Below, piece by piece: positions 729-39,501 of a stretch of DNA of 64,000 nt. Origin of the DNA: Yuukianura sp. NJ FZ-2021 (taxonomy: Eukaryota); contig CM102285.1 in NCBI GenBank assembly GCA_046563655.1, positions 4,712,001 through 4,776,000 of the forward strand. Reading direction: 5' to 3'. Under the pieces are notes generated by a model. It was not told the origin of the DNA. It saw only the letters and a list, made by a program, of their open reading frames with translations, and made no database searches. The translations under genes were made by a program, and so were the position numbers. Position 1 is the stretch's first letter. Each line of letters starts with the position of its first letter.

Positions 729-1815
729 GCGGCAGCGATTTGCAGCGCAGTGGTGAACTACAGTTTTAGTGAAGGTCGTCACTAACCTCGAAGTTCAAGT
801 ACCTCTTAATTGTTTTAAGATTAGTTAAAATTATTATTAATTTAATTACATATAGTTGTTAAAGTATCTAGATAATTTAGTATTTTAGAAATTTATATTT
901 TCTTCCACTTTAGCCTTGAAAGTAGCGATAGAATTTGGTAATTAGCTTAAAATTTATTATCGATAAGGCTTTATTTTTATTTGAAAATTCCTTCAACCGC
1001 AACCAGAAGAGCGAATCTGTCGATTCAGTATTTAGACTATCCAGTGACGACATAACTTCGCGTTTATACTTACACACAAATACCCATAAGTAAATACTTT
1101 AATCGCTTCTTATGCTTTACATGGCAAGTTAAATATTATTGCCATCGTTGATGATTGTATTATTTGAGACAAGCTGAGTCAACGAAATTTGAAAATTTTG
1201 AACGTGGCGTCTCCCTCGTTCTCGTTGTTTAAACGCTTGCTGCTGCCGACGTTTTGTTTAATAAAAGGCAATAACTTTCTTTTACTATATCGTCTGAAAC
1301 TCGAAATGTAATCTTCGGAGAGACATGCAGTATTACAACAACAGTGGTTACGTTTGACGTTTGTTATGTTTCACATTTGGTTATGTCAGCAAGTTCGACA
1401 TGTTTACATTTACTAAAAGAAAATTACTACTCTTCAAAAGGCGCCTGTTTCAAAAATAATGAGCAAGAAAAAAACGATTTAAATAGTAAAGTCGAACTTT
1501 TTGCAAGGAGCGACAGTAATTTATTAGAATATAGACGCTGAAGTCAGCAGTAAACCAAAACAACAAATGTCATAATTGTAAACTAATTTCTACCAATAAC
1601 TAGTGAATGGCATATTGGAATTAAATAATTATCGACGGCTCGGATATAGTGTGGACGAGTACCGAAATTGGCAGATTTGTTCAAGAAGATAAATTGCAGT
1701 AATGAGGTTGGTCGAATTCATGGTTGATTCTCTAAGAACGCAAATTACACGTTAGATTCAAACGACGGAAGTCTAAATTAAGATAAGACTACATGAATGT
1801 TCTGTAGTTTTACCT

Positions 1816-2031
1816 TCAGGAATGGACAATGACAGTGGTTGGAGCTCCAGCGAAGTTTCTACGTTTCGTGTTGTCTGAAATGACGCAACAGGCGTGGATT
1901 ATGCCTGGCAAAATCAAGAGACAGGTCAGGATGATATTGATCAACAGATCTGATCCGCACCCGCTTGACATGAGAACAGCAAATGGTGGGAAGATGCAGG
2001 CGCAGATGTAGCTACAGCAATTGTTGCCCAT
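1816..2031 (-). CDS. Pmp3/UPF0057 family small membrane proteolipid
   Basis: 71 aa with two hydrophobic segments and the family motif IFPPFAV...GCGSDLLINIILTCLLILPGIIHA. Probable 5'UTR intron at about 2181-2067. Confidence 0.88.
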   Translation of the reverse strand: MGNNCCSYICACIFPPFAVLMSSGCGSDLLINIILTCLLILPGIIHACCVISDNTKRRNFAGAPTTVIVHS

Positions 2032-3825
2032 ACTGTCAGTGGTTCTTTAGAAAGCAGCGATGAAGCCTAAAAATTTGAAAGAGAACAGTATTAGAATGAG
2101 CAATTTCCATTAATAGCCACATGGAGGAAAAACGTCCGCACAATTGATTTGAAAAAGAACAGTTTGAAACACATTACATACTTTGGTCACATTCATTTTC
2201 TGAATTTTGAATTTAGGAACGTTCTGTGACTAAAGCGGATAGATCTTTTTTCTCGAGTTGTCGTCGCGCTGAAAGCAACTACGCAATATAGTAATTAATC
2301 AGGTACTGGTCTATATGGCATTGGCAACCAGCAACGCCAATCGATTGAACGAATTCTACGTTTTAAATACAATGACAATGTCGTTTAATTAAGTAACTCT
2401 CATATTTTCGTGGAAATGGTGCCGCAGCTAATTTTGTAACTGTATACTAGTATACTAGCGTGCAGCGATTTGTGTTCGATTTGTATTGTGTTGTCTCTTA
2501 AAATGATCAAAGAAACGCTTTTGAAATGAAAACGCTAAGCTAAAGTCAAATGGGACTTTACCTTACTCAATGTCGTTTTCCTGTCGCGAGTTGTCGTTGT
2601 CACCTGCGCTGTTTGTCTTGTGTTGACCTTTGACCTCCAGCCACTTGAGACTGTTCCGATTTGTGACCGCTGCTTATAGATCTTGCCTCTCCGCTGTCTC
2701 CTGTCCCACTACACTGGATCTGTGGAAAGAACAAACTCTAAAACAAATCCTCCAAGCAACCCTTCGTGCAACATGAACGCTGACCACACAAGTGAAGGAC
2801 GACGGGAGTCGCTTTTGAAAGTTTGTCCAGGACCCAGTACACACGACAAGCCACTACATAGTGTTTCGTTGGTAGTATTACCTTGGAATACACATGTATT
2901 CAACAAAATGTAAATTAAAAAAAAATTAACTCTAGCTGCAAAAGTATTAACACTCACCCCCAAGCGCCCACCCCGACCGCCCGCCCTGGTTGCATTAACT
3001 TCCAAATTTGCAACAATAACTGCTGCACAAATAATTAGTATTAACTAATAAGTGCAAAAAGAATGTCAATCATTGTTACGTTTCTTGCACTTATTAGCTA
3101 GCATGCACTGAATTACGCAGATTGTTTGATTGTTTTTCTTACTTCTTTGAATGCGTCGCTGCTAAACGAAGTGGTAATTACAGAAAATTTTACTCCCGTT
3201 CTTTAGAGTAAAGAAACAAGGCGAAAAGCTAATTAATTATCAATCTGGAGTTCGTGCGCATGAGCATGAATTCGATCAAAGCAATGCAAAGTGTTGGTTT
3301 AGTATTACAGAAGGTTGCTGTTTTCTTCGACAAACAAGATATGACGTTATGAGTCACATTAGTTTTGTATCTTCTGTATTCTTAATTTGACCTTGAAAAC
3401 CCGAAACTTTTTTTTACAGTTACACTCTTACTGCTGTCGTTTGTTTTGCTTACTAATAATGAGATGGGAGGGCGGATTTGCGTTTTAGTGTATTTCTGCA
3501 GAGAATTGTACGGATTTGTATTGTGATTTAATTCAATTCGTTGTTCTGTTGTAATCATTGAGATGCAACCTCGATGAAGTCAATTAGGAATAAAAAGCAT
3601 GTTTCATAAAAAGGATGAACAAAGTTAAAAATGCATAATTCGAAAGGATATAAATTCAGCCTATCAAAAGGAATATAAAATAACAAATAATGCACAAATA
3701 AACGAAGCTTTTTCGTCTCGAAATTTTATATTGAGTGAAATTAACAAAGCGAATGCAAGTTGGTTTTTTTGAATTGCACGCAAAGGTCACGTATGCATCA
3801 ACGTCACGAAAACACGACAAGCCTA

Positions 3826-4060
3826 CAGGGTGTCCAAAAACTTAATCCCCACTTTCTCCAAAATATAAACTCGGGAAATTGCCAGCTTCGCGTACATTTG
3901 ACATTGACATTTACTTTTAGCTCAACCAGTATCAGGGATGACCCCTTGATCATCATGATTAGCATAAAAATCGTCAAACTCGCAAGAAATGTACGAGTTG
4001 CGCACAATTTCTTAAGTCTATTCTTTGGTAAAAGCGGATATTATAAGTTTCTGGACACTA
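3826..4060. mobile_element. Possible degenerate Tc1/mariner-type MITE
   Basis: Left end TA-CAGGGTGTCCAAAAACTTA, with an imperfect inverted copy TAAGTTTCTGGACAC near 4044-4058. Confidence 0.35.
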
Positions 4061-7286: not shown

Positions 7287-8893
7287 CAGAGACACCTCTA
7301 AGATACAAACTCTTTTTCTCCTTTCTCTCAGTGGCGGGATACCGTAAGACTCAAAATTCTGGAGGGAATAGTTTCCGTTGTTGTTTTTTTTTCTCTTTAC
7401 AAAACGAACTAAGTAATGTTCTCACCTTAACCTTTCAGCTTTAATTGTCTGGTATTTTGTTTAAATTACTTAAAACACTTAATTAACTAAAAATGCCAAA
7501 AGTTGTAAGTCCGACTCTGTTTACCAAGAGAAAAATACTGGGAGAAGTTGGCAATATCCCGCGAAAAGACATCTGTGCCAAATATTCTATCGCTAAGTCG
7601 ACATTGAGCCTGCTGATTAAGAAGAAAGATGAACTGGAAAACTTCAAGGGGAATCCAAAGGTCAGTAGATTTTTGAATATAATTACGATTAGTTTTAAAT
7701 GACCTACGAGAGTTATTGAAAATTTTTTGATTTTTGACCAATGTTCCTCATGTTTTTTTTTTTGCAGAAAAGGAAGTCTGTTGTTCAGGGGAAAGTAAAA
7801 ACAATGGACGAAGTGCTTATGGGATGGATTACTGAACAACGAGCAAATGGAATTCCGCTTTCCTGTTCACTAATTAAAGAAAAGGCTCGAACTCTGGATC
7901 CAAATGGGAACAAGAAATATTCTAACGGTTGGTTCGAAAAATTTCAAAAAAGGAACAACCTAACCCATAAGCGAATTTGCGGTGAGGAACTGGAAGTTGA
8001 CCTCGAAAACCTGGACAACTGGAAACTAAACGTTTTAGCCCCCACAACACGAAACTACAGTGACTCCGACATTTTTAACGCTGACGAATCAGCGCTTTTT
8101 TTCAAAAAACTACCCGGCACGACATTTGATGTAAAAGGTGGGAAGGTCACTGGAATTAAGTTTTAACTTCTAATTTTATTTTAATTTGTATTTAATTTAT
8201 GTTTTTTTTTTGAATAGGAAAAAAGTGCTTTGGCCTGAAAGCTTCAAAGGAAAGAGTGACTTTCCTAGCCTGTTGCAACAAAACCGGCGATCAGAAGCAG
8301 CCACTGCTAATTATCGGGAAATCTAAAAATCCGAGGTGTTTCAAGAACACTAAATTCGCCTCAGAATTTACTTATCGTTCGTCAAAGAGGGCCTGGATGA
8401 CACGGGAATTATTTTCCGAGTGGCTGGCAACGTTTAATTCAAACATGGCAGACCAGAAAAGGAAGGTGTTGCTCATACTGGACAATTTTAGCGGACATGT
8501 GGTTGAGGAGGAACTTTTTCCAAATTTGCAACTTTTATTTTTGCCACCGAATACAACTTCAAAGAGTCAGCCACTGGATTGCGGAATTATTCAGTCCCTG
8601 AAACAAAATTATTGTCACCAAATTGTTAAAGTTTTGGATTCTGGGAAAGATCTGAATGATGTGAAACTTTCGGTTGGGATAGAAATGCTTTGTCAATCGT
8701 GGAATGATGTCAAGCAAGAAACAATTGTTAATTGTTTTAGAAAAAGCGAGAAAATTGGTTAAGGCTCTAAATTGCAAATCCAAACAATAAATATCTGCAC
8801 GCCTCGTCGCTTTTTGAAAATTTACGGTATCGGCGTCCTTTCACTTCCTAAAACAACCAATCACAGCGAGTTTGTATCTTAGAGGGGTCTCTG
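7287..8893 (+). mobile_element. pogo/Tigger DNA transposon, full length (1607 bp)
   Basis: 26-bp TIRs CAGAGACACCTCTAAGATACAAACTC (7287-7312) and the inverted copy at 8868-8893 with 1 mismatch. TA TSD at 7285-7286 and 8894-8895. Confidence 0.93.
7493..8762 (+). CDS. pogo/Tigger transposase (CENP-B-type HTH plus DDE_1), about 360 aa, 3 exons
   Basis: Exons 7493-7660, 7768-8137 and 8218-8762 join in frame. Motifs SNGWFEKFQKR, FNADESALFF, KERVTFLACCN, LILDNFSGH, LPPNTTSKSQPLDCGII. Confidence 0.92.
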
Positions 8894-10614
8894 TATGACT
8901 GATCCTAGGCTATGACTTATAGCCTATGAGGAACATGCAGAAAAGTATTGGATATGGATGAACAGCTGAGAAGCTGAGCTTAAATGTAATTCTTGGTCAA
9001 TTTCAGTGCTTGACTTTCCGTTTCTTAACTTTCCCATTAAAGTCAAGGTTTTTCATCCATTTTTCTATAAATTAATTAAATAAAATAATTAAATAAAAAT
9101 AACAAGTCCGGCGCCGGAACTTCTAACAATATTTTGATTCAGTAATGCAAAATGGACATTACCTGACTTGAAACTGAAGTTAAACCATGTCATAGTTAGT
9201 TAAAGTTCAAATAGCAGATGTTAAACAATTAAAAAAACAGACGATTCGATTTTGACGCGAAGAAAAGTTGAACCAAGTTCAACTTCTCATCGCGTCAACT
9301 TTTCTTGACGCGACGTCAGTTTTGAATCGGAAGGAGGCAGTGTGATAGCTCCCCGATTTTGAGCTCGCGTTGAGTTTGAGGCTGAGAAAAAACGCGCGTC
9401 AACTCAACGCAGCCTCAAATCCAATGTGATAGCCTTTTTCTCGCGTTGGATTCAAATCCAACGCAAAAAGTTGAGGTGCGTCGGCAATGTGATACGGGCT
9501 TAAGGATTCTCATTCTCACTTGATTTTCAGCATTTAAATGTTAAGCAACGTCAGATACACAAATAATAAATTAAGACAAATTTTTCGAAGCACACATTTT
9601 TTTTGACTCTTCGAGAAACGAAGTTGCTGCATAGTATTCCAACATTGAACATTCCAATGGGTTAGTACTTTTTCTTGGTTTAAGCAATGTCATTGTGGCA
9701 AGGGTGATCAACATGTCGCTTATGCTCGGCTAGATTCAACTTTTTGTAAACCGCAAAGCAATTTTAGTAAACGGTTTAGATTCACTCAGCATATTTTTGC
9801 AAATGGTGGATGCAGGCAACAACACTCATTGAAGTTTTTTAGTCGTATACGTTTTAAGAGATTTTTCTTCAGTTGACTCAGAAAAATGGCGGAGATTACA
9901 CTAGTCAAGCTCAAGACGACGCTTTGCTGAGGAAATGACTACACCACGCCCAGAAACCCTTTTGGTTTTGTCCTAAAACTACAGTTTCAAGGACTAGGAC
10001 AAGGTCAAGGACTTCAAGTTTAAGTTTTTTTTTAACTGGAGAGAACAAATATTGTTTGGCGCCCGGCTTTTGAGTAAGTGTTCGTGGGTTTTCGGTCATG
10101 GTGACTTAAAATATGTAATTCATAAATATATTTAAGAAATGTGAAAATTACTTTTGAAATGTAAAATTACATGTACAATTACATTTCTGTAGGATTAAGG
10201 CATAATCCACTGATGACGTCAACCAAGCAAGATTTGTTTGTCCATATTGTTTGTCTCAGGACTAATAAAAGGAAGTGTGAACTTATAATTAACACCTAAA
10301 GACGCGTGCTTATCAATACCAAACAAACGTTTATGACTCGACTTTATCAGCAAAGATAATGCAGACTCATAACTTCAGTGTTTTCGCCAGGTTATGTTAA
10401 ATTATGCCTTCCGTACCACTCATTGGCTAGCGCTACGTCTTGAACGAAAACTTTTCCACAAAACGCTTCCGACGTTCTTCAAATTTCGACATCCAACGCT
10501 TTGTTCGGCGACTAAATTGTCAGCGTTCTACGAGTGAAAGTGAACAGTTTACTATGTGAATTAACATTAATCAATTTGCACTTAATATACGCGCAAAGTC
10601 GACGATTAAAAGTC

Positions 10615-11016
10615 ATGAGTGACGAAGTGAATTCCACTTCCACTACAGTTCCAACGATTCTGACGGCGGGAATACGGTCCACTTATCATACAGAATTATA
10701 CGTTGCAGTTCAAATTGTGACTGCAATTTCGTCATTCGTCGCCGTCCTAGTGATTTCTTTCATGGCATTCGTAGTCTTGTATGCGAAGCACACAAATAGG
10801 AAAGAAAGACAACAAAACTCAATTGTAATTGAGCAAGAAGAGGCCATCATGGACGCTAGACGGAGGAAACACCTCTATGCCAACAGAAACAGTGTCAAGA
10901 GAGATGTGATAGTGGTCGTAACTGATAGTTGCGAAGCATCTATTCCCAAAGACACAGGAGGTAACGCTGAAGTTCGATCCAATGGAGACGACGGAGTGTC
11001 GAACTCCGCAGTTTAA
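10615..11016 (+). CDS. Small single-pass membrane protein, unknown function
   Basis: Ser/Thr-rich N-terminus, one hydrophobic helix (IVTAISSFVAVLVISFMAFVVLY) and a basic juxtamembrane segment. Confidence 0.6.
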   Translation: MSDEVNSTSTTVPTILTAGIRSTYHTELYVAVQIVTAISSFVAVLVISFMAFVVLYAKHTNRKERQQNSIVIEQEEAIMDARRRKHLYANRNSVKRDVIVVVTDSCEASIPKDTGGNAEVRSNGDDGVSNSAV

Positions 11017-11488
11017 GTGAAATCTATAAACGGGAAGCAAAAGACACGCCGCAGTCCCATCGTAGCCTTCACTGCCAAGTCAGTGGCAAGAATCGAAGGA
11101 AAAAAGTGAATTTTAGACCGTAAGGTGCGTGGAAGGCTTCATTTGACACCAACATTACATACGCTTCATCAGTGGAATCTTGAACTTGAAATAGAAAACA
11201 AAAGTTAACTCGAGCTTAGGTTTAATCTTATAATTCCGCAACGTTTGCTGTCGTACTATTACTAGTTCCGTACGTAGCTGGAAACTAAATACATTTTTAT
11301 AACTCAAAAGACTAGTCGCTAAATGTTAGATAATTAATCAAGAAAGCAAAGAAGAAGAAGCTGAATGCCGAAACAAATAAGTTTAGAAATTGTATCGCGG
11401 TTCAAAAAAATATTGATTGAAAATGATTAATGATACTTGCGTGATTCGGTGAGTAATTTTAAAGAATTCTAACGTTGTCTTCTTGTTC

Positions 11489-12790
11489 TTATTCGTGTCG
11501 TATTTCAACAACAATTGATTTGGCAGCCAAGTCATACATAGTCCGTTGATGTTCAAATTGGAAGAGCGTGAAGCAGAAGGGGAAGAGAATTGCTAGACTC
11601 AAGTTCTTTATGCAGGAGCGAAGGAGTGCCCTCTGGAACGGAAGGAAGGAGCCAGGGGAAACTAGAACTCGAGTTGCCGGGAGTCCACCGGCGTAAAACT
11701 GGATGTTGACGTTGTTATTTTGGTACATGTCGGCGGAGATGGGTATCACTTGGTTACTGCAGTCCAAGACTCTCAAACGCATGAATCCTTTTCCTGGAGT
11801 TGCACCGCCTTTGAACAAGCAGTACGTCTGCAAAGATTAAACAAAAAGTTAAGACGTCTAACAAAAGGAATTGGCAGATATTGGAACAGTAAGTGAGAGA
11901 TGTTTTCAAATGTACCTCAAAAAAGCAAACAATAATACGGTGAGTAACTTCCAGTACGAACAATTCCCAAGAAATCGTCATTGCCAGTTCAATGAGGTCT
12001 CCAGATTCCTGTAAAGCTTCCAAATCCACGTTCTCAAGGTTTCTTGAAATTATAAACGGCAAATAAGTTATTGCTAAGTTTGAACCATTCAAATTCATTA
12101 AAAGATTAATTTCAAATAAGTTTTTAAAGTCATACATGAGTTCAAAATTCTCGATGATGGAAAACGTAACAAAGAGTTTGACCACCAGGAGGAGTAGAAA
12201 GTCAATACATTCTGCGACGACTCTTTTCCACAGAGGAGCGATATTAAAATCTATATCGAAAGTAAAACATAGTAAGTTTACAGAAACTACGACTAGCACA
12301 TAGGGTTTTCAAGCAGTTGAAATAGAATAATCTTACCAAATGCAATGTTGTTCTGATTTGTTCGGATTCCGCGAACCAAAAAACGTCTGTATTGTGGATT
12401 TTGCATATTGAGGTTTGGCTCGACCACATTATTGTTGTTCAAACCCCGGAAATTCAGATTGTAGAACTCGCGACCAGGAAGGTTTGCATTTTGGGGTACA
12501 GAGGATGAGGAAGACGTCTGCATTCCGCGATGCCAAGGATACATCATTCCAAGGGCAGTGTAGTAAGCCGAAACTGCGCATTCTCTCTGCCAATATGCTC
12601 TTCCTAGCCAGTTTTCAAGCTGCTTGAAGTATTCTGCCATGTTTCCGTTATATGGTTTATATTCCATCACTGGATATTGCGAAGGTGGGATGGTAGAGTC
12701 GCTGTCTGTAGCTTGACTGGAAGAGCTTGGATCATTTCCATTGGAAGCAGACGCTGGTTGTTGTGAATGATTAACCGCGTTGTCGTCCAT
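11489..12790 (-). CDS. FAM8A1: FAM8A1-like RDD-domain protein (multi-exon)
   Basis: EYFKQLENWL, IAPLWKRVVAECIDFLLL, GGATPGKGFMRLRV, RALLRSCIKNLSLAILFPFCF and RTMYDLAAKSIVVE lie across GT-AG-bounded exons. Confidence 0.9.
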
Positions 12791-22600: not shown

Positions 22601-24511
22601 TTGCTAAAACTATTGTTTCAAAAGAGTACTGCGCTCGCATCTTTAGCATTCTCAACAGTACAGTAGCTTTAGTACGGTTCCATGTGATTTGGTCAGAAAG
22701 TGAAAAGATCAAAAGTGAAATGATCAGAAAAAAAAGGTCAGAAAAGGAAAGAACGTAACCAAACCTAACCTGAGATCTTTTGAATTCTGACCTTTTCACT
22801 TCTGATCATTTCACTTCTGACCAAATATTTCTGACCATTTCACCTGCTACGCTTTAGTACAGTTTAGTACAAATAGTTACTCCCACCACCTACTTAGATG
22901 AATTCTGAGGATGTTTTTCGAGTCCAGTAGTTTCTATTGTGCAAATAGTTACTCCCGCCGCCTGATCAGATGAAATTCTGAGGAAGACGTTTTTTGCTAA
23001 AACTACTGTTTCAAAAGAGTACTAATGCTGTTCTTCCTCTTCTTCTATTTTCTGAATGAGTCCAGAAGCTTTAGTTCAGTCTAGTGTAAATAGTTACTCC
23101 CTTCCCCTGTTCATATGAGTTCAAAGTTTTACGTTAAATTTATTATTTTGAAACAGTGCTATGAAACGATTCCTCTGCACTCCCAATGAGTCTGTGCACC
23201 TGGTAAATAGTTCAAATAGTTACTCCCTCCAACTGTTTCACCAGATTCCACATTTACAGTGCTGTTTTATCGCGTTGTGCTAATCTAAATACATCTAACA
23301 TGTACAATCATTCACAGGGGTTTCAACTCTTCCGACGAAAACTATTCCATGCAAAGTATTGTTATTAACAATCACCTCGACATACTACCAGTGAGACCGA
23401 CCCCTCCGAGTTGGATGTGCGACTGGCTAAGGCCTCCATACGTAGACTGCGCTTGACCAGAAAAACGTCCATTCCCAGCCACATTTCCTTCAACTTGGGT
23501 TTGGCTACCTGTAAAATTAAAACCGTTTGTAACGCGGCTATTAAATCAAACTAAAGCTACTGAATCGTGAATTGAATAAGTGATTGAATACAAGTCCGGG
23601 TTTGGATGGGTCTGGGCCACGGCCGAAGCATGCATTGCGCGAGATAGGAGATGAGATGAGGGAAATGAATGGGAGAAATTCTCCATGCTATGCTAATTCT
23701 CCTACTCGCCGTACGTAAAACTCCTTAGTGGCCCAGCTCCTATCTTTTTCTTGAGCAAACCCAGACTACTCCGGGAGTAGTCCCACAAGCGTTTTACAGC
23801 AGAAAGTACCTTGCCAGTGTAACTGGTTTTGGTTTGTCCGTTGACCTTCCATAGTCNNNNNNNNNNNNNNNNNNNNNNNNNNNNNNNNNNNNNNNNNNNN
23901 NNNNNNNNNNNNNNNNNNNNNNNNNNNNNNNNNNNNNNNNNNNNNNNNNNNNNNNNCGTTGACCTTCCATAGTCGAGTCTTGAGCCAAACGTTGTTCGTA
24001 TCCGCCAGCAGCGTTTCTGCGCGTTCTATGGAACCTCCGTCGTTCTTTTGTCGAAGTGGAATTCATCTCCATTTGAAGAAGCGGCAAATTGGAACAAAAT
24101 TCCTTTTGAAATCTGGAAACCTCCACACCATGAGAGCCAGTCAAGGGTTTTCCAGCCAACAGAATCCCATGACTCTGACGGTCTGTTGTGTCTTCGATAT
24201 GCTGGACGAAGCAAGCTGGAACTGTCGGATCCTTGTACAAGACAATGTTCGCTTCATGATCATAAAGTGCGCGTACTTCAAAAACTCCTGTTCCACCTTT
24301 AGATTCCTAATAAAAAAACAAAAAAAATAAGAGCACGATTTGAATTATTTAGCTACTATTTATGTTGCTTTTTACTTCCGAGCCCCGTACATTTAAAAAC
24401 ATATATTTCAATTTGTTTAAATGGTCTCACTTGATTCGCTACTGATTTGGCAGAAGTCCTTGTATACCCAAGGATCAAACAAAGAAATAGAGCAAGATAC
24501 TCTTTTAGCAT
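19620..24511 (-). CDS. Large secreted Gly/Gln/Ser-rich low-complexity protein with Cys-containing N- and C-terminal domains
   Basis: Signal-peptide exon (MLKEYLALFLCLILGYT), then exons at about 24307-23810, 23508-23377, 21956-21613 and 21181-19620, plus a possible exon at 21376-21301. Contains an RTRR furin-like site and ends CHVVTFQCTVIFDTNGKSKLCQPK...CCC. Confidence 0.7.
22338..22498. mobile_element. Small TIR element inserted in the tandem repeat
   Basis: AGAGTGTGGCAAGCCCCCAAGTAAA and its imperfect inverted copy TTTACTGGGGGTAATGCCGCTCTCT split the repeat unit CTACTTAG|ATGAATT. Confidence 0.55.
22675..22851. mobile_element. Small non-autonomous DNA element with 8-10 bp TSD (MULE/hAT-like)
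   Basis: Direct repeat GCTTTAGTAC at 22666-22675 and 22851-22860. Subterminal inverted GGTCAGAAA/TTTCTGACC arrays and a central AACCTAACCT. Confidence 0.65.
23857..23956. other. Assembly gap (100 N)
   Basis: N run flanked on both sides by the identical 18-mer CGTTGACCTTCCATAGTC. Confidence 0.99.
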
Positions 24512-29419: not shown

Positions 29420-32400
29420 GGCTCGGACAGTACTTGGGCTCCGCAGATTTGGGACACGTCCACGTCGGAAGACAGCCCGGACAGTGCTGGCGAGGCACAG
29501 TGCGGATGAGCCAGTGGCGAAGTGTGTTGAGCTTCAAGTAGTTGTTGGCCCACCACTGCTTGGGTCCTGCTTCCGAAAATAAACTTGGAAGATGGTAGGG
29601 GAGACGGAAGCATTCCTACGCTCGGGGAGAAAGCAATGAATAACGACTTCGGCTTGTGCCTCAGATGCTTAGTTCATACAACTACGTTTGTTCAAACAGA
29701 ACCTAATGGAAGGAGATTATTATTTAAGATTCCGGGCATCTTTTTTGCCCTGGTTCCCCAGCCTCATCTGCCACAGCCTCTCAAGACACCTTTTCTCCCC
29801 GGCCCAACAAAGCGGAAGTGCTAAGATTCATTTTTGACAATTCCAAACGCAGCTTTCGAAGCCAAATGCATCTTACCACTTTCAACCACCAGGCGCTGCC
29901 AGATCACATCCAGATTTACCTACCATGAACATAACGTTCTGTTTTATGAACCTCTTCAATTTAGTACTATCTAATCTGCTAACTTCTTAGACGTCACTAC
30001 ATTGGAAAAACCACCTACCAAATACTTCAAACTTCCACATTTGCCAATAGTTGCTCAAATATATTTAAAAAAAACTGAGTTTTTCAATTTTTTTCTGACG
30101 TCGAAAGAAAAGCAAACTTAAAACTTAGACACGCAAGGCCCCGTTTCTAATAATAACATTTTGTTCTTAGATGAAAGTGATTTGAAGATGATTAGCATGT
30201 AGAAGTCATTGTATTCGGGTCGAAAGATGTGCTATGTGTGACATCCGTCGTCAGGAACAACAGAATGGAAAACTTTTTACGAACCAGAATGAGTGACTTG
30301 GCACCAAATACTTTAGAAATGACTTACGTCTTCATATAGTATACTATGCTCGTGTGCTAATATTTTAGAACATATTGCCTTCTAAATTCAGAAGTACATA
30401 GGTACTTCTGAATATTTTTCAGTAGTCTCATATACGACTACTGAAAAAATATCATAAGTGTGGAACGAAAACACAGTTCCATAGTTGACAAACCACGTCA
30501 ATAGTTTTGAGGAACTATGAACTTATTTTTTGAAACTAATTTAAGACGAAGTTCATTTGAATTTTTATAAAAAGCTTTTTTAAAACATCGTAGGAGCCAT
30601 TCCAATTGGTTCCAATTTTTCTGTGGCAAGACACCTGTGACATGGGCTGAAAGTGGTTTTGTTGGCCATGGCCCAAGTAACCACCATTTCATTCGAATTG
30701 CGTTTTTTGGTGACTTCTGGCGCTCGGTGACACGTCAATCGCCCCCTCAAAAACCAGTCCACCCAAGTTTTTGAATGAAACACTTTTGATAGTGTGCCAA
30801 TGTCGTAGTGAAGCGTTCATCTCAGACTGAGATGAAGAAAACTATATCCTTGAGTGTGTGACATATTTTCAGTTTTCAACAGAATTCAAATTAGTTTTTG
30901 CAAATTCTGGGGAAACCGCAACAAATCCGAATTCCCATTTACTTCCGCCACTTTAAGCCAAAATAAAGCCAATGATTTCGGACCAAACGTCATTTTGTGG
31001 ACAATTGAGCATCAATTCAGCGTAGCTTCCGGTTTGCCTGGAGAAATGCAATGAGGAACCTGTTTCTGTGATTCATTGATGCGGAAGTTAGGATGATAAA
31101 AATGAATCAGTCATGTTATGTTGAAGAAGTAGAGGAAGCAGACCGACTCGTACAGTAAACTTCCCCTGGACCACACATCTGCTCGTGCGTCTACACTTTA
31201 AAAAACGCCCAAACCAAAACCCGCTTTTCGGTGTTTTCTGCCCCGTCAAAGTCCAACCCGAAGTTTTCAGGGCCCACTGCTCTTTTGGTCTGAATGGCGA
31301 CCGTCAGTATTTAGGAATTCATCCATTCCCGCACATTCGATTGACGTAAAAAGGGTTCCGTTCATGGGCTTCTGTGTTTTAAGTTCATACAGCACCTCAT
31401 AAGAAAATCGGTTTTGAATACAAGTTTCGCTATTATAATACTAGTAATTCCAATTCCCTCACTCGTATGGAACGACACTGGACCAATAATGCATCTCTGG
31501 ACTTAAATTAGCTTATCCGTAGAGAGGGTTTTCAATATGCGTGAATTCCTCGCATCTCTCTGAAGAAAGTTTTTCAACTTGGAAAAAAATTGTATTTCGA
31601 ACTTCATGTTTTGTTTAGGTTGTCCGACCGATTGGGAAAAAAATTATGACAATTTTTTACAAGAACGACTGAAAACAGAGAAAGATTTCAACATCAACTA
31701 AAGATTGAAAAGATTGAAAAATGCGTAAACTGACGTATTTCCTGGTTGAAAAGTAAATCCCAGAATATAACAATTTGGGAAAAATGTGCAGCATTATTAG
31801 GTGTCTCAATAATGTCTTTAGTCTAGACTAAATTGTTAAGCTTAATTATAGTTTAGAGCGTCGTAGTTCGTCAGTATAAAAATGCTATTGGTAAATCTCC
31901 CCGTTGAGTCTCAAAAAAGTTGTTAAGGTTTGTACGGAGGATCTCCAAAATTAGGATGAGATTTTGTTAAGAATTGGGATTGAATGAACTGCCACCAGTG
32001 TAGGTATGAATAGAAGTTGTTTGGATATTGAACGATACTATAAACAACTACTCAAACACAATGCTGCCACCATTTCTCCGAAATACATGTGCCTTCACTC
32101 TGGCACATGCTTTCCAGTAGCCCTCAGAGGCACCATGTATTTATTCGTAAGGGACTGATGAACTCCCTCCACTGCATTCCCTTCATTATCCAAATAAACA
32201 GTCATCACTTCAAAGTTCATGAACGGCCCAAGCCACCTACAGCTTCTTTCTTATGCCTTCCACTTTGGCGAAACTTTTTTTAAAAATAACAGGATACTTT
32301 ACCGCCGAATTGAAGTTTCAGCGATCTGTTGCTTTTTGCAATAATTAGATATTCACTCAAGGATTTTCGTGCAGCATTTTAGCAGTATATGCGTTGAAGA

Positions 32401-33240
32401 GTTTGCAGCGGATATGCGCATGTGTTGCTTGTTTGGTTTGAAAGGTCCTGAGAGGGCTAGATTTCATTGAAGTGGAACCATTACTGGTTGCTGTTGCTGT
32501 CACTGACACCTTTAGTTTTCATGTGTGTAGAGTAAGGGGATACTTTCGGAGTATTGAAGGTGCGTGTGGTGGTACTTAACCCTTAAGACGACATTTGGCG
32601 CGTGCCAGAGTCCGGGGGATGAAATGTGGTCAATTAGAACTTTTGAAGTAAAATGTGGAGAAAGGGGATGCTTTTACAGGAGTTTCTTCCAGAAAGTGCA
32701 GTTACACTTACAATATGGGGATGAAGATGCGGAGGGGTGAAAGACGTGAGGGCTTCAGCATCCGTAGGGATCAGTTTCCTTGGGACACGAGACATTGCAG
32801 ATGCTGAGTGAAATGACCAAGAAGTGCGCCTAATTTCTTAATGGCTTTCCTCGAACTATGAGATAATCTATGAAAACCGAAATCTAAGCATTGTGTTACG
32901 GTGCATTTGGTTTGGATTACCTTTAACTTAATAGTTAATAGGTTAGGTTTGTCTAGCATAATTTCATTGTTAATTACCTAATTTAGCTCGCTAGGATTTT
33001 GGTGTGCTTAGATTTTTGGATGCTTTGTTATGACCTCGTCCTGGGTAAAGTTCAATTTTTTCATTTTACAGATCTTAAGCATAGCGCGTTACGGTTAACC
33101 ATGGTGTCTCCGCGTGACCTGCCGTTTGTGGCGTTTGGGAAGAAACCCATTCCCACTCGCCACTGGATGAGGATTGCATGGAAGAGATAGCTGGGATAGC
33201 TGCCTTCCAATTGCTCCATCCTTCGAGAGGTTTGTAGAAT

Positions 33241-33316
33241 GTGGCCTGATAGCATAAGGGCAGTGCAGTCTCCCCGGATTGGAGAAAGACGTGGGTTCGA
33301 ATCCCACTCGGTCACT
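33241..33316 (+). ncRNA. tRNA-like Pol III cassette in 5' LTR
   Basis: Acceptor-like GTGGCC/GGTCAC, A-box-like TAGCATAAGGG, stem TCTCC/GGAGA, T arm GTGGG-TTCGAAT-CCCAC and a downstream T6. Confidence 0.7.
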
Positions 33317-33539
33317 TATTTTTTCTACACTCTCGTTCTTTGTCTCTCAAGCCATGTGACCCCTGAACGTCACATATGGCGCCCAACGCCGGGATACGGC
33401 AATAGGGGGCTTGAGGGGCGGGTGGTGTGGCGTTTGGGAAGAAACCCATTCCCACTCGCCACTGGATGAGGATTGCATGGAAGAGATAGCTGGGATAGCT
33501 GCCTTCCAATTGCTCCATCCTTCGAGAGGTTTGTAGAAT

Positions 33540-33614
33540 GTGGCCTGATAGCATAAGGGCAGTGCAGTCTCCCGGATTGGAGAAAGACGTGGGTTCGAAT
33601 CCCACTCGGTCACT
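33540..33614 (+). ncRNA. tRNA-like Pol III cassette in 3' LTR
   Basis: Same as the first copy, with one C fewer in the anticodon arm. Confidence 0.7.
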
Positions 33615-33750
33615 TATTTTTTCTACACTCTCGTTCTTTGTCTCTCAAGCCATGTGACCCCTGAACGTCACACGTTCCAGAATGCTGGGTCATGTTTCGT
33701 TACTTTCGTACACTTCGATTTACAACCGATTTAACGAAAAAGTCAATACT

Positions 33751-36384
33751 TTATTTAAGATATTGGTACATTGTATTGATTTGGTTGAGTTCCAACTTCT
33801 TCGGATTGACTAGCAAAATTATTCGAGCTGTGCCATATTCTTTTCTGCTTATGTGGGCAACAAATTCCGCAAGAAATGAAACCAGAGTTAGCGTAATACA
33901 GAACGCATAGATGTAAAAGAGAACGCGGATTTTAGTATTTAAAGTCAGCACCTTTGGAATTTTGGTTTGATCTTCCAGTTTTCCAAAACTCTCCCTCAAC
34001 TCCTTCATCCACTGTATGGAGTCGTTCAGTTTTACTAATTCGTCTAGTCTGTCGTTGATTCCCGCTTCCACAAAACCAGCTAGACGGCGTTGTAGTTCCG
34101 GCCGAGCGATATGTAGCGGATGGAGGGTGATGCCCCACTTGGTACTTCTGAGTACTTTAGTCTTATCTTGCAGAATGTAAAGGCTCTGGTTCAGTGACCT
34201 CTGGGGGTCAAACTGGTCCAGGTACAAATACTTGCTAAGCAGATCAGCCGAGTCAATGTACATTCCGCCATCGCAAGTATCCACTTCCTTTTTAACAGTG
34301 GTGTTACATCTACGCGGTTTCGTGTTTTTTGCGAGTTTCATCAAAATTTGACCTTTACGTGTGTCAATACTCGATTCGTTGAATTTTTCAAACGATTTTG
34401 CTTTTGCCAGGTTTTGGTACAGCGTGAGCCTCGCATCGGTAGACTGCGGAATATCATCTATCATTTCGACGCGTGCGTGGAACGTGAAGTAGTCTGCACA
34501 TGTCTCTACGAGTTCAGTCCCCATCAGAGGTGCATGAAGTTCAATTCCTTCTGTGAGGAAGTCTATGAGAGGTTTGAATGCAGTGTCAAGGTCATTCGGG
34601 TAGTTACAGCATCCGAGAGAGAAAGGAGCGACGAATTCGTAGTGTTCGCTTACGGAAGTTAACCCGAGGTCGATTGCAGCTTCGAGTGATTCTATGCCGG
34701 ATTCGTCAAAAGGTTTAACCAAAGATGTTATGACTGTTCCCTTGTAGCCATTAGAAAGAACCACGCCAGTTACAATGAAAACGGCAAAAATTGGCGGGAA
34801 AGACAACATTTTAAATTTTTTGCCCGTAATGCTGAAGGACGCTTCCATAAAAATTGAGATGAGCAGAAACGGGAGAATAGGTTGGAGCTGCTTGTACTGT
34901 GGCAAGAACCAGTAGCCTATGCACGGGACTGCGCAAGCGCAGAGGAGGCCAAGCCAAACTGCCCAGGTGAATGGTTGGACATAGTCGTACAAGCCCATTT
35001 TCGTTTGGAGTCCGGAACATGTGATAGCAGCTCGGTTGACGTCGGCCACAGAGACAAATAGTGTGTCTGACCCCACATTCTTCTGGAGAAAAGGCTTCAA
35101 ACTGAGGTCAACGACCCATTCGCTGGGTTGCCACAGAAGACCAAGCATTCGAAGGAACAGGGTGTCCATACTTGCATAGATGACGCGTGACGAGTTAAAT
35201 CCTCTACCGATCAGCGCAATAATTTCCGACTGTGTGGCGTTGACACTGGGGTAGTAAATTTTGTCGTAGGGTTTTGGCGGGTCTTTGAAGTGGGAGTAAA
35301 TCAGGATACTAATCTTAGAATTCTTAAACTCAGCAACGCTCTTCATGACCTTAGTTTGATTCAAACCTGAAACATAACGGCAATAATTGTCATTACTAGC
35401 TTGGACCCGTGGAGTGGCCTAGTATTAACAAAGGTCAAAACCAATGACCTTTGTTTGATTGGTTTTGACTTAGGTTTTGGTTTCATTAAATTTAACTCTG
35501 GCTTTAGCTTGGGCACTTGACTTGACCGTGACCATTAACCCCGCTCATTGACCTTTAGCCGAAATTACGTGTCGTACAAATATCTTACCGCTCAGGATAG
35601 AAACCCTTTCCGCATATTCTGTGACGTACAAATTGTTTGCTAGAGAAATTCCAATGTAGCAGCTCACGCCTTCAGGAGTCTCAGTTTCCCATTGCGGTGC
35701 CACCGTCACGATGGGGATGTAGAAGAATGACATTGAGGTTCTGTCGTTAGCGGATACGCTGTCATGCTCTGATTTCCGAGACCTTCTATGGACATCCAGA
35801 AATTCCTCCGGAGAGGTCAGGATACCGATAAAAATTTGAGCGGGAGAAAATGGCGGGAAAGTATATTCTTTGAGATCCAATTCCAAGGCGTAAGATTCCG
35901 TTGCTCCCTTCGTGTGCCATGAAAATTGTTGCATCTCTGCCCTGCTCCAGTATTGGTTCATGTACCAGTAAATGTCAACCTCATCCTCGACCTCTTCCGG
36001 TGGGTAGAGGCTAAGGACAGCTAGACACCTCATACCTCGTATCATATAGTTTTGGGTGACGTAGGGACATAAATGGCCGTGGTAGCTGAAGGTATGGTTG
36101 GATCCAAAGCTGCGTCGCCTGTTTTTAGTGCTGTTCCCTTCGTCGCATGACTTGTTGACATAGGGGTCAAAGTAGGGCGTCGCCAGGGCAACCGGCACGG
36201 AGGACGAGAAAATGTCACTGATGATTGGCGGGAGTAAAGGGATGATTGTGTGATTGTAGAGAATGAGCTGCACGTAACAATTTTTCCATTGTTGAATGAA
36301 CGGACTCACATTTATTAAATCTTGACGTGAATTTTGAAATACGTATTGCAGAAAGAATATTTTGGAAAAATACCTGTACCCCAT
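33751..36384 (-). CDS. Divergent ionotropic receptor (variant iGluR)-like protein, 2 exons
   Basis: Exons at about 36384-35589 and 35366-33751 join in frame. Motifs YVQPFTWAVWLGLL (M1), VLSNGYKGTVITSL (M3), FVEAGI and LFYIYAFCITLTLVSFLAEF (M4). Confidence 0.8.
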
Positions 36385-37629
36385 TTTCTCAACTCCTTCA
36401 AAAAAGAAATTCAATACAGCTCACATTCCTTCAAAGTCAAACTTATTTCTAAAATACGATTTTGAATCTCGTGCAGTTCACAAAAATCCCATGTGACTTT
36501 CTCGTTGTCAACAAAGCTTACTATTTGCACAATTTCTTTTTCATCAAAAATGACATAGCACGAAGTTTCAAGTTTGAAATTTTTGATGCTGGACTTTGTT
36601 TTTCATGAATTCAGATAATCCCACAAGGGAAATCGCATCCCATAAGACCCCATAACCACGATATAGTTCGTTCAAAAATGTAAATGAATTATTTTAATTC
36701 ATTTCACTTTCTTATTAAAATTTAGAGGACAGTGTACTAGGTCAAAGGTCAACGGGTCTTTCGCTACTTACGTACACCGCGTAACCTAACCTTACAAGTT
36801 TTACGGTGAAAGTTTGACTATCAGAACAGTCTCCTAAATTTTTAAGTGTAGAAAAAATGATTTGGTTCTAATCTTAATGCTGACTGATTAGCATTAGCAG
36901 AGGTCATCCGTCAGTCAGGCGTCGGACTGCAGATTCCACAACTCCGTGTGTGGTTTGGTTTCATTCATCTCGCATTGACTCAAGAAAGAGTTTTCGCTTG
37001 GGTCAAACTTCGAGTTTAAATAAATCTTACGAAGAGCACACAAACGCAGCACAAAACTTTCTGTTTGTTTTTGCATAACTTGGACTTTATGCCACAGAGC
37101 AAGAAATGACTCACGAAAAAAAAATACTGCAGTTTTTATGGGGTTGTTTTCTATAAAAACTAAAGTTAAATAACATTTCATTCCAATACGTTGACCTCTG
37201 ACCTGAAGACTGATGGACTTGAAGACTCAATTGCAATCTTGTACATTTTTTTTAGTAAAATTACTTATTGGTTTTATTATTTGAAAATTGCAGCATGTTT
37301 TACATGTACGTAAACTTAAGAACGCCGATAACGCATAAATGCATCGTACAAGCCAAAAATAAATTAAAATGATGATCAGTGAGGTTTCTGAAAACTTAGG
37401 CGTTTGGAACTTTTAGACGTTTTAGTGAAAGCGGAATGACTAGAATTTAATAATATAAAAGTAGCTAGTGAAAACAACTTATTATTGTAATTCGGTTGTG
37501 AAGGTCAGCATATATGGCTTACAATTATTAGTGAGTTCGACAATAAATTATTCATAGTCAGTGATATGACAAGTGACCGGGCCATTCTAACTTTTCAGTT
37601 CCTTTTCCCAACCCCTTATGCAGACTTCT

Positions 37630-39501
<1,872 letters not shown>

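Follow-up and report, generated by a model that had tools for sequence, protein, structure and literature searches.

The element and its surroundings

The window, by which we mean the whole 64 kb stretch of DNA that was analysed, is eukaryotic, with a linker histone and spliced genes, and a repeat search and alignment across its full length delimited within it a non-coding element of 546 bp, made up of two direct long terminal repeats (LTRs) and a very short interior (248 + 51 + 247). The parts of the element are as follows.

33123..33126, plus strand: left copy of the target-site duplication, CGTT; the flank (...GCCGTT) directly abuts the LTR
33127..33374, plus strand: 5' LTR, 248 nt, TG..CA; the same as 33426-33672 bar one C
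33241..33316, plus strand: tRNA-like sequence of the 5' LTR; ARAGORN tRNA-Ser(gga); RF00005, 34.6 bits
33319..33324, plus strand: T6 run of the 5' LTR, a polymerase III terminator motif, 3 nt past the tRNA-like sequence
33377..33388, plus strand: primer-binding site TGGCGCCCAACG, putatively for tRNA-Lys, 2 nt past the 5' LTR
33405..33425, plus strand: G-rich polypurine-like tract abutting the 3' LTR, 16/21 purines, ending GGGTGG
33426..33672, plus strand: 3' LTR, 247 nt, TG..CA
33540..33614, plus strand: tRNA-like sequence of the 3' LTR; ARAGORN tRNA without an anticodon call; RF00005, 33.3 bits
33617..33622, plus strand: T6 run of the 3' LTR, from a motif scan; candidate 3' end of the element RNA
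33673..33676, plus strand: right copy of the target-site duplication, CGTT, directly after the 3' LTR

The sole difference between the two LTRs is one C in the C-run at 33272-33275, and the first 10 nt of the LTR match the reverse complement of its last 10 nt at 8 of 10 positions. The interior (33375-33425) opens with TA, followed by TGGCGCCCAACG, and its 3' end is GGGGGCTTGAGGGGCGGGTGG; the primer-site 12-mer has a single match in the 64 kb window with up to one mismatch allowed, where the chance expectation is 0.07. An earlier reading of this DNA, made from the letters alone (the sequence-only reading), had described an LTR pair with TG..CA ends and short inverted termini, a CGTT duplication, a 51-bp interior, a primer site two bases past the first LTR and a G-rich tract at the second, and every one of these was present and could be given its place. 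The 64 kb window yielded neither a second copy nor a solo LTR, the motif scan found no AATAAA, ATTAAA or TATA[AT]A on either strand of the LTR, and, among the 206 open frames of at least 70 aa in the window, the 89 longest showed no reverse transcriptase (RT) or integrase domain. A 19-nt repeat at 32730-32748, 84% alike to the LTR, was taken as a chance resemblance, its surroundings being without tRNA-like or LTR features. What lies at this locus is a recently inserted, non-coding LTR retrotransposon of 546 bp with a tRNA-like polymerase III unit in each LTR.

The two tRNA-like copies are the only Rfam matches in the whole 64 kb window, and the cloverleaf is the minimum-energy fold for both, at energies no better than those of shuffled sequences (z -1.0 and -1.4). 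The sequence-only reading had seen in each LTR a cloverleaf with an A box, a perfect B box and a T6 terminator, and had proposed a tRNAscan-SE/Infernal check of 33241-33316. That stretch scored 34.6 bits, above the RF00005 gathering score of 29 bits; the cloverleaf was recovered in both LTRs by Rfam, by folding and by ARAGORN (2/2), and the terminators stand at the positions listed above. As for the boxes, the B box (GGTTCGAATCC at 33294-33304) is indeed perfect, and the A box turned out to be an imperfect one, since the A-box-like TAGCATAAGGG at 33250-33260 has TAGCA in place of the published TRGCY, and AGGG with no YGG. T runs of four or more occur in the element as the two T6 runs only, the first of them 50 nt upstream of the LTR end and 52 nt upstream of the primer site; the absence of any further T run between the two is not significant, as about 50% of composition-matched shuffles are likewise free of one (8% of background windows).

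That ARAGORN and Rfam label both copies as tRNA would suit a reading of the locus as a pair of functional tRNA genes, duplicated along with the sequence on either side, yet both scores are barely over the Rfam cut-off and the copies depart from tRNA in several respects. Serine tRNAs have a long extra arm, and the Ser(gga) call comes without one; U33 is near-universal in tRNAs, and the 5' LTR copy has C at that position; the 3' LTR copy has an anticodon loop of 6 nt, one base short, and no ARAGORN anticodon. We regard two working genes as scarcely credible. A tRNA-like part that is not credible as a tRNA is also what most families show of Helenus, a group of elements described in 2024 (Kojima, Biology 13:119, PMC10886601).

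A 25-nt stretch of the tRNA-like part had no matches in metagenome, viral and prokaryote contig collections. One metagenome contig, found with a gapped pattern running from the T-arm to the primer site, was dismissed as a chance match: it holds a bacterial tRNA-Ser and then high-G+C protein-coding DNA, which by eye we take to encode NADH-dehydrogenase subunits. Scans for bacterial-type promoters and terminators are inapplicable to a eukaryotic element such as this one.

The remainder of the window contains the following.

7738-8759, plus strand: pogo/Tc5-like transposon gene in two adjacent frames; Tc5-type HTH 4e-14, DDE_1 endonuclease 1.5e-43
23857-23956: assembly gap, 100 N
33754-35418, minus strand: 555-aa open frame, ending about 80 nt from the right end of the element, which lies just past its stop
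35548-36420, 37633-38460, 43693-44667, 50483-51493, 54331-55176 and 57410-58681, minus strand: long frames without a family
48066-49058, 50205-50498 and 56421-56837, minus strand: galactosyltransferase (PF01762) exons
40695-41090 and 63431-63748, minus strand: GFO/IDH/MocA oxidoreductase C-terminal exons

The pogo/Tc5-like gene belongs to a DNA transposon and is either split or interrupted by an intron, and the repetition of the PF01762 and the GFO/IDH/MocA exons suggests local gene duplications. Neither a Pfam family nor, among proteins of 305-972 aa, a homologue was found for the 555-aa frame beside the element, so that this frame is uninformative for placing the host. Two other genes proved more helpful: proteins of Orchesella cincta and O. 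dallaii share 79% identity with a conserved carboxylesterase exon (60059-60370), against at most 69% for the other named matches among the 120 listed, and the best named match of histone H1 is in O. cincta. Judged by these protein matches, the host is an arthropod closest to springtails, not necessarily near Orchesella.

Copies, mobility and age of the family

Contigs of public sequencing runs that were at least 85% alike were placed on 32627-34172, giving 255 contigs from X1 and 71 from X3 (DNA runs of organisms A and B, respectively), and two each from the metatranscriptomes X4 and X6, which cover 6/30 and 3/30 bins, so that the stretches they leave uncovered are uninformative. Taken as a sign of a repeat family and not as copy numbers, the summed depths in X1 are lowest over the single-copy flanks (about 170); they reach 920-1310 in the 5' part of the LTR and 1540-3830 in the interior, and peak at 8200-12100 in the tRNA-like 3' half together with the 50 nt downstream of it. 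The same profile was seen in X3 (4.7 over the flanks vs 174-324 over the 3' part), so that in both DNA runs the element is covered 5-70 times as deeply as the flanks, and among copies at least 85% alike the tRNA-like 3' half with its downstream stretch has 7-10 times the depth of the upstream part of the LTR. Six X1 contigs turn to unlike sequence directly after 33672, which is the terminus of the LTR. The LTR-interior-LTR junctions were confirmed independently of the assembly by an X3 contig that spans 33339-33455 with 1 difference, and again by an X4 RNA-library contig over 33305-33547, which has 0 differences and crosses the first T6. The element is a member of a multi-copy interspersed family whose copies share an LTR terminus; the 4-bp target-site duplication, CGTT, was seen at one copy, i.e., that of the window locus.

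It could be asked whether a tandem duplication that arose locally, or a dimeric SINE of tRNA origin, merely resembles a pair of LTRs, given that the repeat occurs as two adjacent copies and that the window contains no further one. Such an origin is very unlikely. The order of the parts is A-B-A, not A-B-A-B; the repeats have TG..CA ends with termini inverted at 8/10 positions; the 12-nt tRNA-primer site begins exactly 2 nt past the first repeat, and the purine tract adjoins the second; and the whole unit is flanked by the 4-bp duplication. The repeat also begins 114 nt upstream of the tRNA-like head, unlike a SINE, and in the sequenced contigs the terminus is shared by other copies and the interior, too, is multi-copy.

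Evidence on the age of the insertion came from element-free contigs that join 33100 to 33710: X1 has one of depth 109, whose flanks are about 97% alike to those of the window, and X3 has one of 1138 nt, for which the figure is about 95%. The skip of 609 nt is larger than the 550 nt of the element plus one duplication, and the lengths of the bridging contigs fit a precise empty site of 59 nt (X3: 164 = 45 + about 60 + 59; X1: 210 = 102 + 59 + 45 + 4), while being compatible with other splits as well. From these lengths, a precise empty site at the locus in the relatives is likely. Since the LTRs differ by a single indel, set against flanks of about 97% and 95%, the insertion is younger than the divergence of these genomes. 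Both of the points that the sequence-only reading had made on this subject were upheld: mobility, for which it had proposed looking for dispersed copies and an empty site, by the multi-copy depth, the shared end at 33672 and the element-free locus in two genomes, and recent insertion by the LTRs being one indel apart at a locus that is element-free in the relatives. At position 32657, all of the X1 depth carries a letter other than that of the window, so X1 may be another individual, and a heterozygous insertion in X1 is not claimable given this difference.

Two further observations were made on the same contigs. To the left of the element, X1 and X3 both cover 32939-33042 at 4-6 times the depth of the flanks, and an X3 contig skips 32898-33055, which is probably another small repeat or an indel ~85 nt from the insertion. 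Two contig forms in X1 (depth 92.6 and 39.9) run to 33662, continue through 21 letters resembling a variant LTR start, and resume at 33500. These forms suggest a subfamily with a shorter upstream part of the LTR, in which one LTR directly follows another, either as an array or as an assembly artefact.

Helenus affinity, host range and primer sites

The structure of the element fits the published definition of Helenus (TRIMp3 sensu Kojima 2024) and lies within the ranges given for it (PMC10886601), i.e., LTRs of 104-323 nt (248 here), internal parts of 43-621 nt (51 here) and total lengths of 311-1263 nt (546 here). The primer site after the 5' LTR, the purine tract before the 3' LTR and the duplication of 4 bp are further likenesses; in all animal Helenus families with a determined duplication, it is of 4 bp, and Gypsy elements have been proposed as the partners of animal Helenus. 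The conserved boxes reported for Helenus are TRGCY ... YGG for A and GGTTC for B (PMC10886601), the latter of which is found in the window element and the former in part (TAGCA and AGGG, at 33250-33260). In the published LTR consensuses that were compared, the tRNA-like part is likewise followed at once by a T run. Interior length varies with the host group, from 197-621 nt in wasps to 43-48 nt in fish and 58-60 nt in Lingula, so that the interior of the window element, at 51 nt, falls far below those of wasp Helenus and nearer to those of fish and Lingula.

The primer site provides a closer parallel. The primers listed for Helenus of wasps, vertebrates and bivalves include tRNA-Lys (PMC10886601), and the TGGCGCCCAACG 12-mer has 7 occurrences in the available supplement of that paper, including Helenus-3_CGi and Helenus-3_CVi, in whose internal parts it follows a 2-nt spacer, as in the window element. 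On four counts, then, the sequence-only reading agreed with what is published on Helenus: it had taken the element for a TRIM with a tRNA promoter, the structure for which fits as described above; it had read the primer site as that of tRNA-Lys, the same 12-mer serving as primer site in the two bivalve families; it had taken the 4-bp duplication as a hint of a Gypsy partner, in keeping with animal Helenus; and it had supposed mobilisation in trans, with which the non-coding structure is consistent, the supply of enzymes being presumed. That reading had itself named Helenus among known non-autonomous LTR elements with LTRs derived from small RNAs.

Relatedness to particular published families was gauged by word search of the same supplement, in its available form. 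The D-arm 9-mer of the window element had 0 occurrences there and the T-arm 14-mer had 1, in a fungal family, so that by this type of search there was no sign of relatedness to the published Helenus consensuses. What is new is limited to the host lineage and to this family, for which the word search turned up no published counterpart. With regard to hosts, the arthropods with published Helenus are chalcidoid and cynipid wasps only, Hymenoptera being the only Arthropoda of Table S1 (PMC10886601), and springtails are absent from the hosts named in the available main text and supplement of that paper; in the literature from 2024 on, no later report of such elements in springtails was found. The window element would thus extend the patchy host range of TRIMs that carry tRNA-like sequences to a basal hexapod lineage, an extension that lends support to the published view that such elements arise repeatedly. 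There is also a practical side to their presence, in that such copies inflate the tRNA gene counts of genome annotations.

A related copy in X1 and X3, seen as loose contig ends before 33404, has the primer site TGGTGCCGAAAG in place of TGGCGCCCAACG, a difference at 3/12 positions, and keeps the CCGGGA directly behind that site as well as the end of the interior with the purine tract. The variant site is, we assume, tRNA-Phe-like. As judged from the contig sequences, this copy is a sign that organisms A and B have a sister subfamily, which may use another primer tRNA, and the comparison of the two sites suggests that the primer site of the window element could be composite, with 12 nt of a tRNA-Lys site placed onto an older site. 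A chimeric site of this kind would be the expected remnant of mis-primed reverse transcription in which the new primer was copied. Primer switching within lineages was inferred for Helenus by Kojima (PMC10886601), and the variant site is in agreement with it.

We are highly confident of the assignment of the family to Helenus and of its mobility. The best overall explanation, one we consider strongly probable, is that the element is a Helenus-type TRIM that is mobilised in trans and has a tRNA-like internal promoter; the last of these properties, as set out below, is where an alternative has to be weighed.

Transcription of the element and other known systems

In the scheme that we propose, RT and integrase would be provided in trans by an autonomous element of the Gypsy type, with the same tRNA primer and 4-bp duplications. 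The tRNA-like part would yield no working tRNA and would act instead as an internal polymerase III promoter, from which an RNA is predicted to start near 33241 and read past the first T6; it would then include U5, the primer site and, after the purine tract, U3, and end at the second T6, in the 3' LTR. What goes beyond the structure in this scheme is modelled on retroviral-type replication and on Kojima's model (PMC10886601). The crux is the first T6: because it lies 50 nt before the end of the 5' LTR, polymerase III must read through it, and efficient termination there would give only an RNA of ~85 nt that is not reverse-transcribable from the primer site. Read-through of the first T6 together with a stop at the second would, in turn, make the tRNA-like segment (about 85 nt) the R repeat that is needed in strand transfer. 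In the available text of PMC10886601, read-through of the terminator is not discussed, the one mention of a terminator there concerning Cassandra.

Three observations make the tRNA-like unit the candidate promoter: the LTR has no TATA-like, AATAAA or ATTAAA motif, no part of the family is more widely shared than the tRNA-like 3' half, and an X6 metatranscriptome contig is exact over the 80 nt of 33240-33319 and unlike the window upstream of them. Two X6 contigs stop at 33319 and include, ahead of the tRNA-like part, 82 and 111 nt of U3-like sequence, and the X4 contig passes the first T6 and goes on through U5, the interior and U3. These RNA-library contigs, which have depths of 3-12, may be DNA carry-over and show no transcript starts, are weak hints that fit a scheme of read-through followed by a stop at T6.

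In a different account, the element is an ordinary TRIM whose transcription depends on polymerase II or on read-through from its surroundings, and the tRNA-like part is a passenger, a SINE or tRNA relic copied between the LTRs. A T6 right after the tRNA-like part should halt polymerase III before it reaches U5 or the primer site, and the A box departs from Kojima's consensus; the X4 RNA-library contig that passes the T6 would be readily explained, and the molecules behind the two X6 contigs with 82 and 111 nt of upstream sequence did not start at the first base of the tRNA-like part. Kojima's own proposal for the origin of Helenus, the insertion of a SINE into the LTR of a TRIM (PMC10886601), is of the same tenor. 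However, an LTR without a TATA-like motif, AATAAA or ATTAAA on either strand is not what this account would favour, and neither is it favoured by the tRNA-like 3' half and downstream stretch being the most widely shared at the level of 85% or more, at 7-10 times the depth of the upstream LTR. The exact 80-nt match in X6, with its unlike upstream sequence, suggests that the tRNA-like part is under constraint, and the X6 contigs that stop at 33319 also fit the U3-R 3' end of an RNA terminated at T6. We see the passenger account as a serious possibility that falls short of being probable; it concerns the promoter step only, and under it the element would still have the structure that defines Helenus.

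Our preferred reading remains that of transcription from the tRNA-like unit, and for its most demanding step, the production of the full-length RNA by polymerase III, we consider the chances to be evenly balanced. A broader reading, that springtails have an independently born and active Helenus lineage in which a constrained tRNA-like core common to several subfamilies, a polymerase III leak at T6 that gives the full-length RNA, and switches of primer tRNA between subfamilies go together, is a speculative one that we put forward as rather unlikely in its entirety. All TRIMp3 elements pose the question of how an RNA of reverse-transcribable length can come from a polymerase III unit that includes a terminator, and the window element is a convenient test case for their transcription, being a young copy, absent at the same site in relatives, and of simple anatomy.

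Three known systems invite comparison. Like the window element, SINE2 elements have a tRNA-like head with A and B boxes, are non-coding and are mobilised in trans, whereas SINEs are copied by LINE enzymes and have no LTRs, primer site or purine tract; as the head begins 114 nt into an LTR, and primer site, purine tract and TG..CA are all present, the element is not a SINE2. Retrozymes, too, are small non-autonomous LTR elements with LTRs unlike those of autonomous elements, but retrozyme LTRs contain hammerhead ribozymes, and the window has no Rfam match to a ribozyme family, by which this identity was ruled out. The third system is Cassandra, which has 5S rRNA in the LTRs of a TRIM (Kalendar et al. 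2008, as cited in PMC10886601). It differs in its 5S rather than tRNA-like sequence, its restriction to plants and its 5-bp duplications, and identity with Cassandra or Ajax was ruled out in the absence of any 5S rRNA match in the LTRs, even with E up to 1 over 32000-35000. Nevertheless, both Cassandra and the window element are non-autonomous LTR elements with a polymerase III gene, complete with promoter and terminator, in each LTR, and the transcription of Cassandra reportedly starts in the small-RNA part of the 5' LTR and ends in that of the 3' LTR (PMC10886601).
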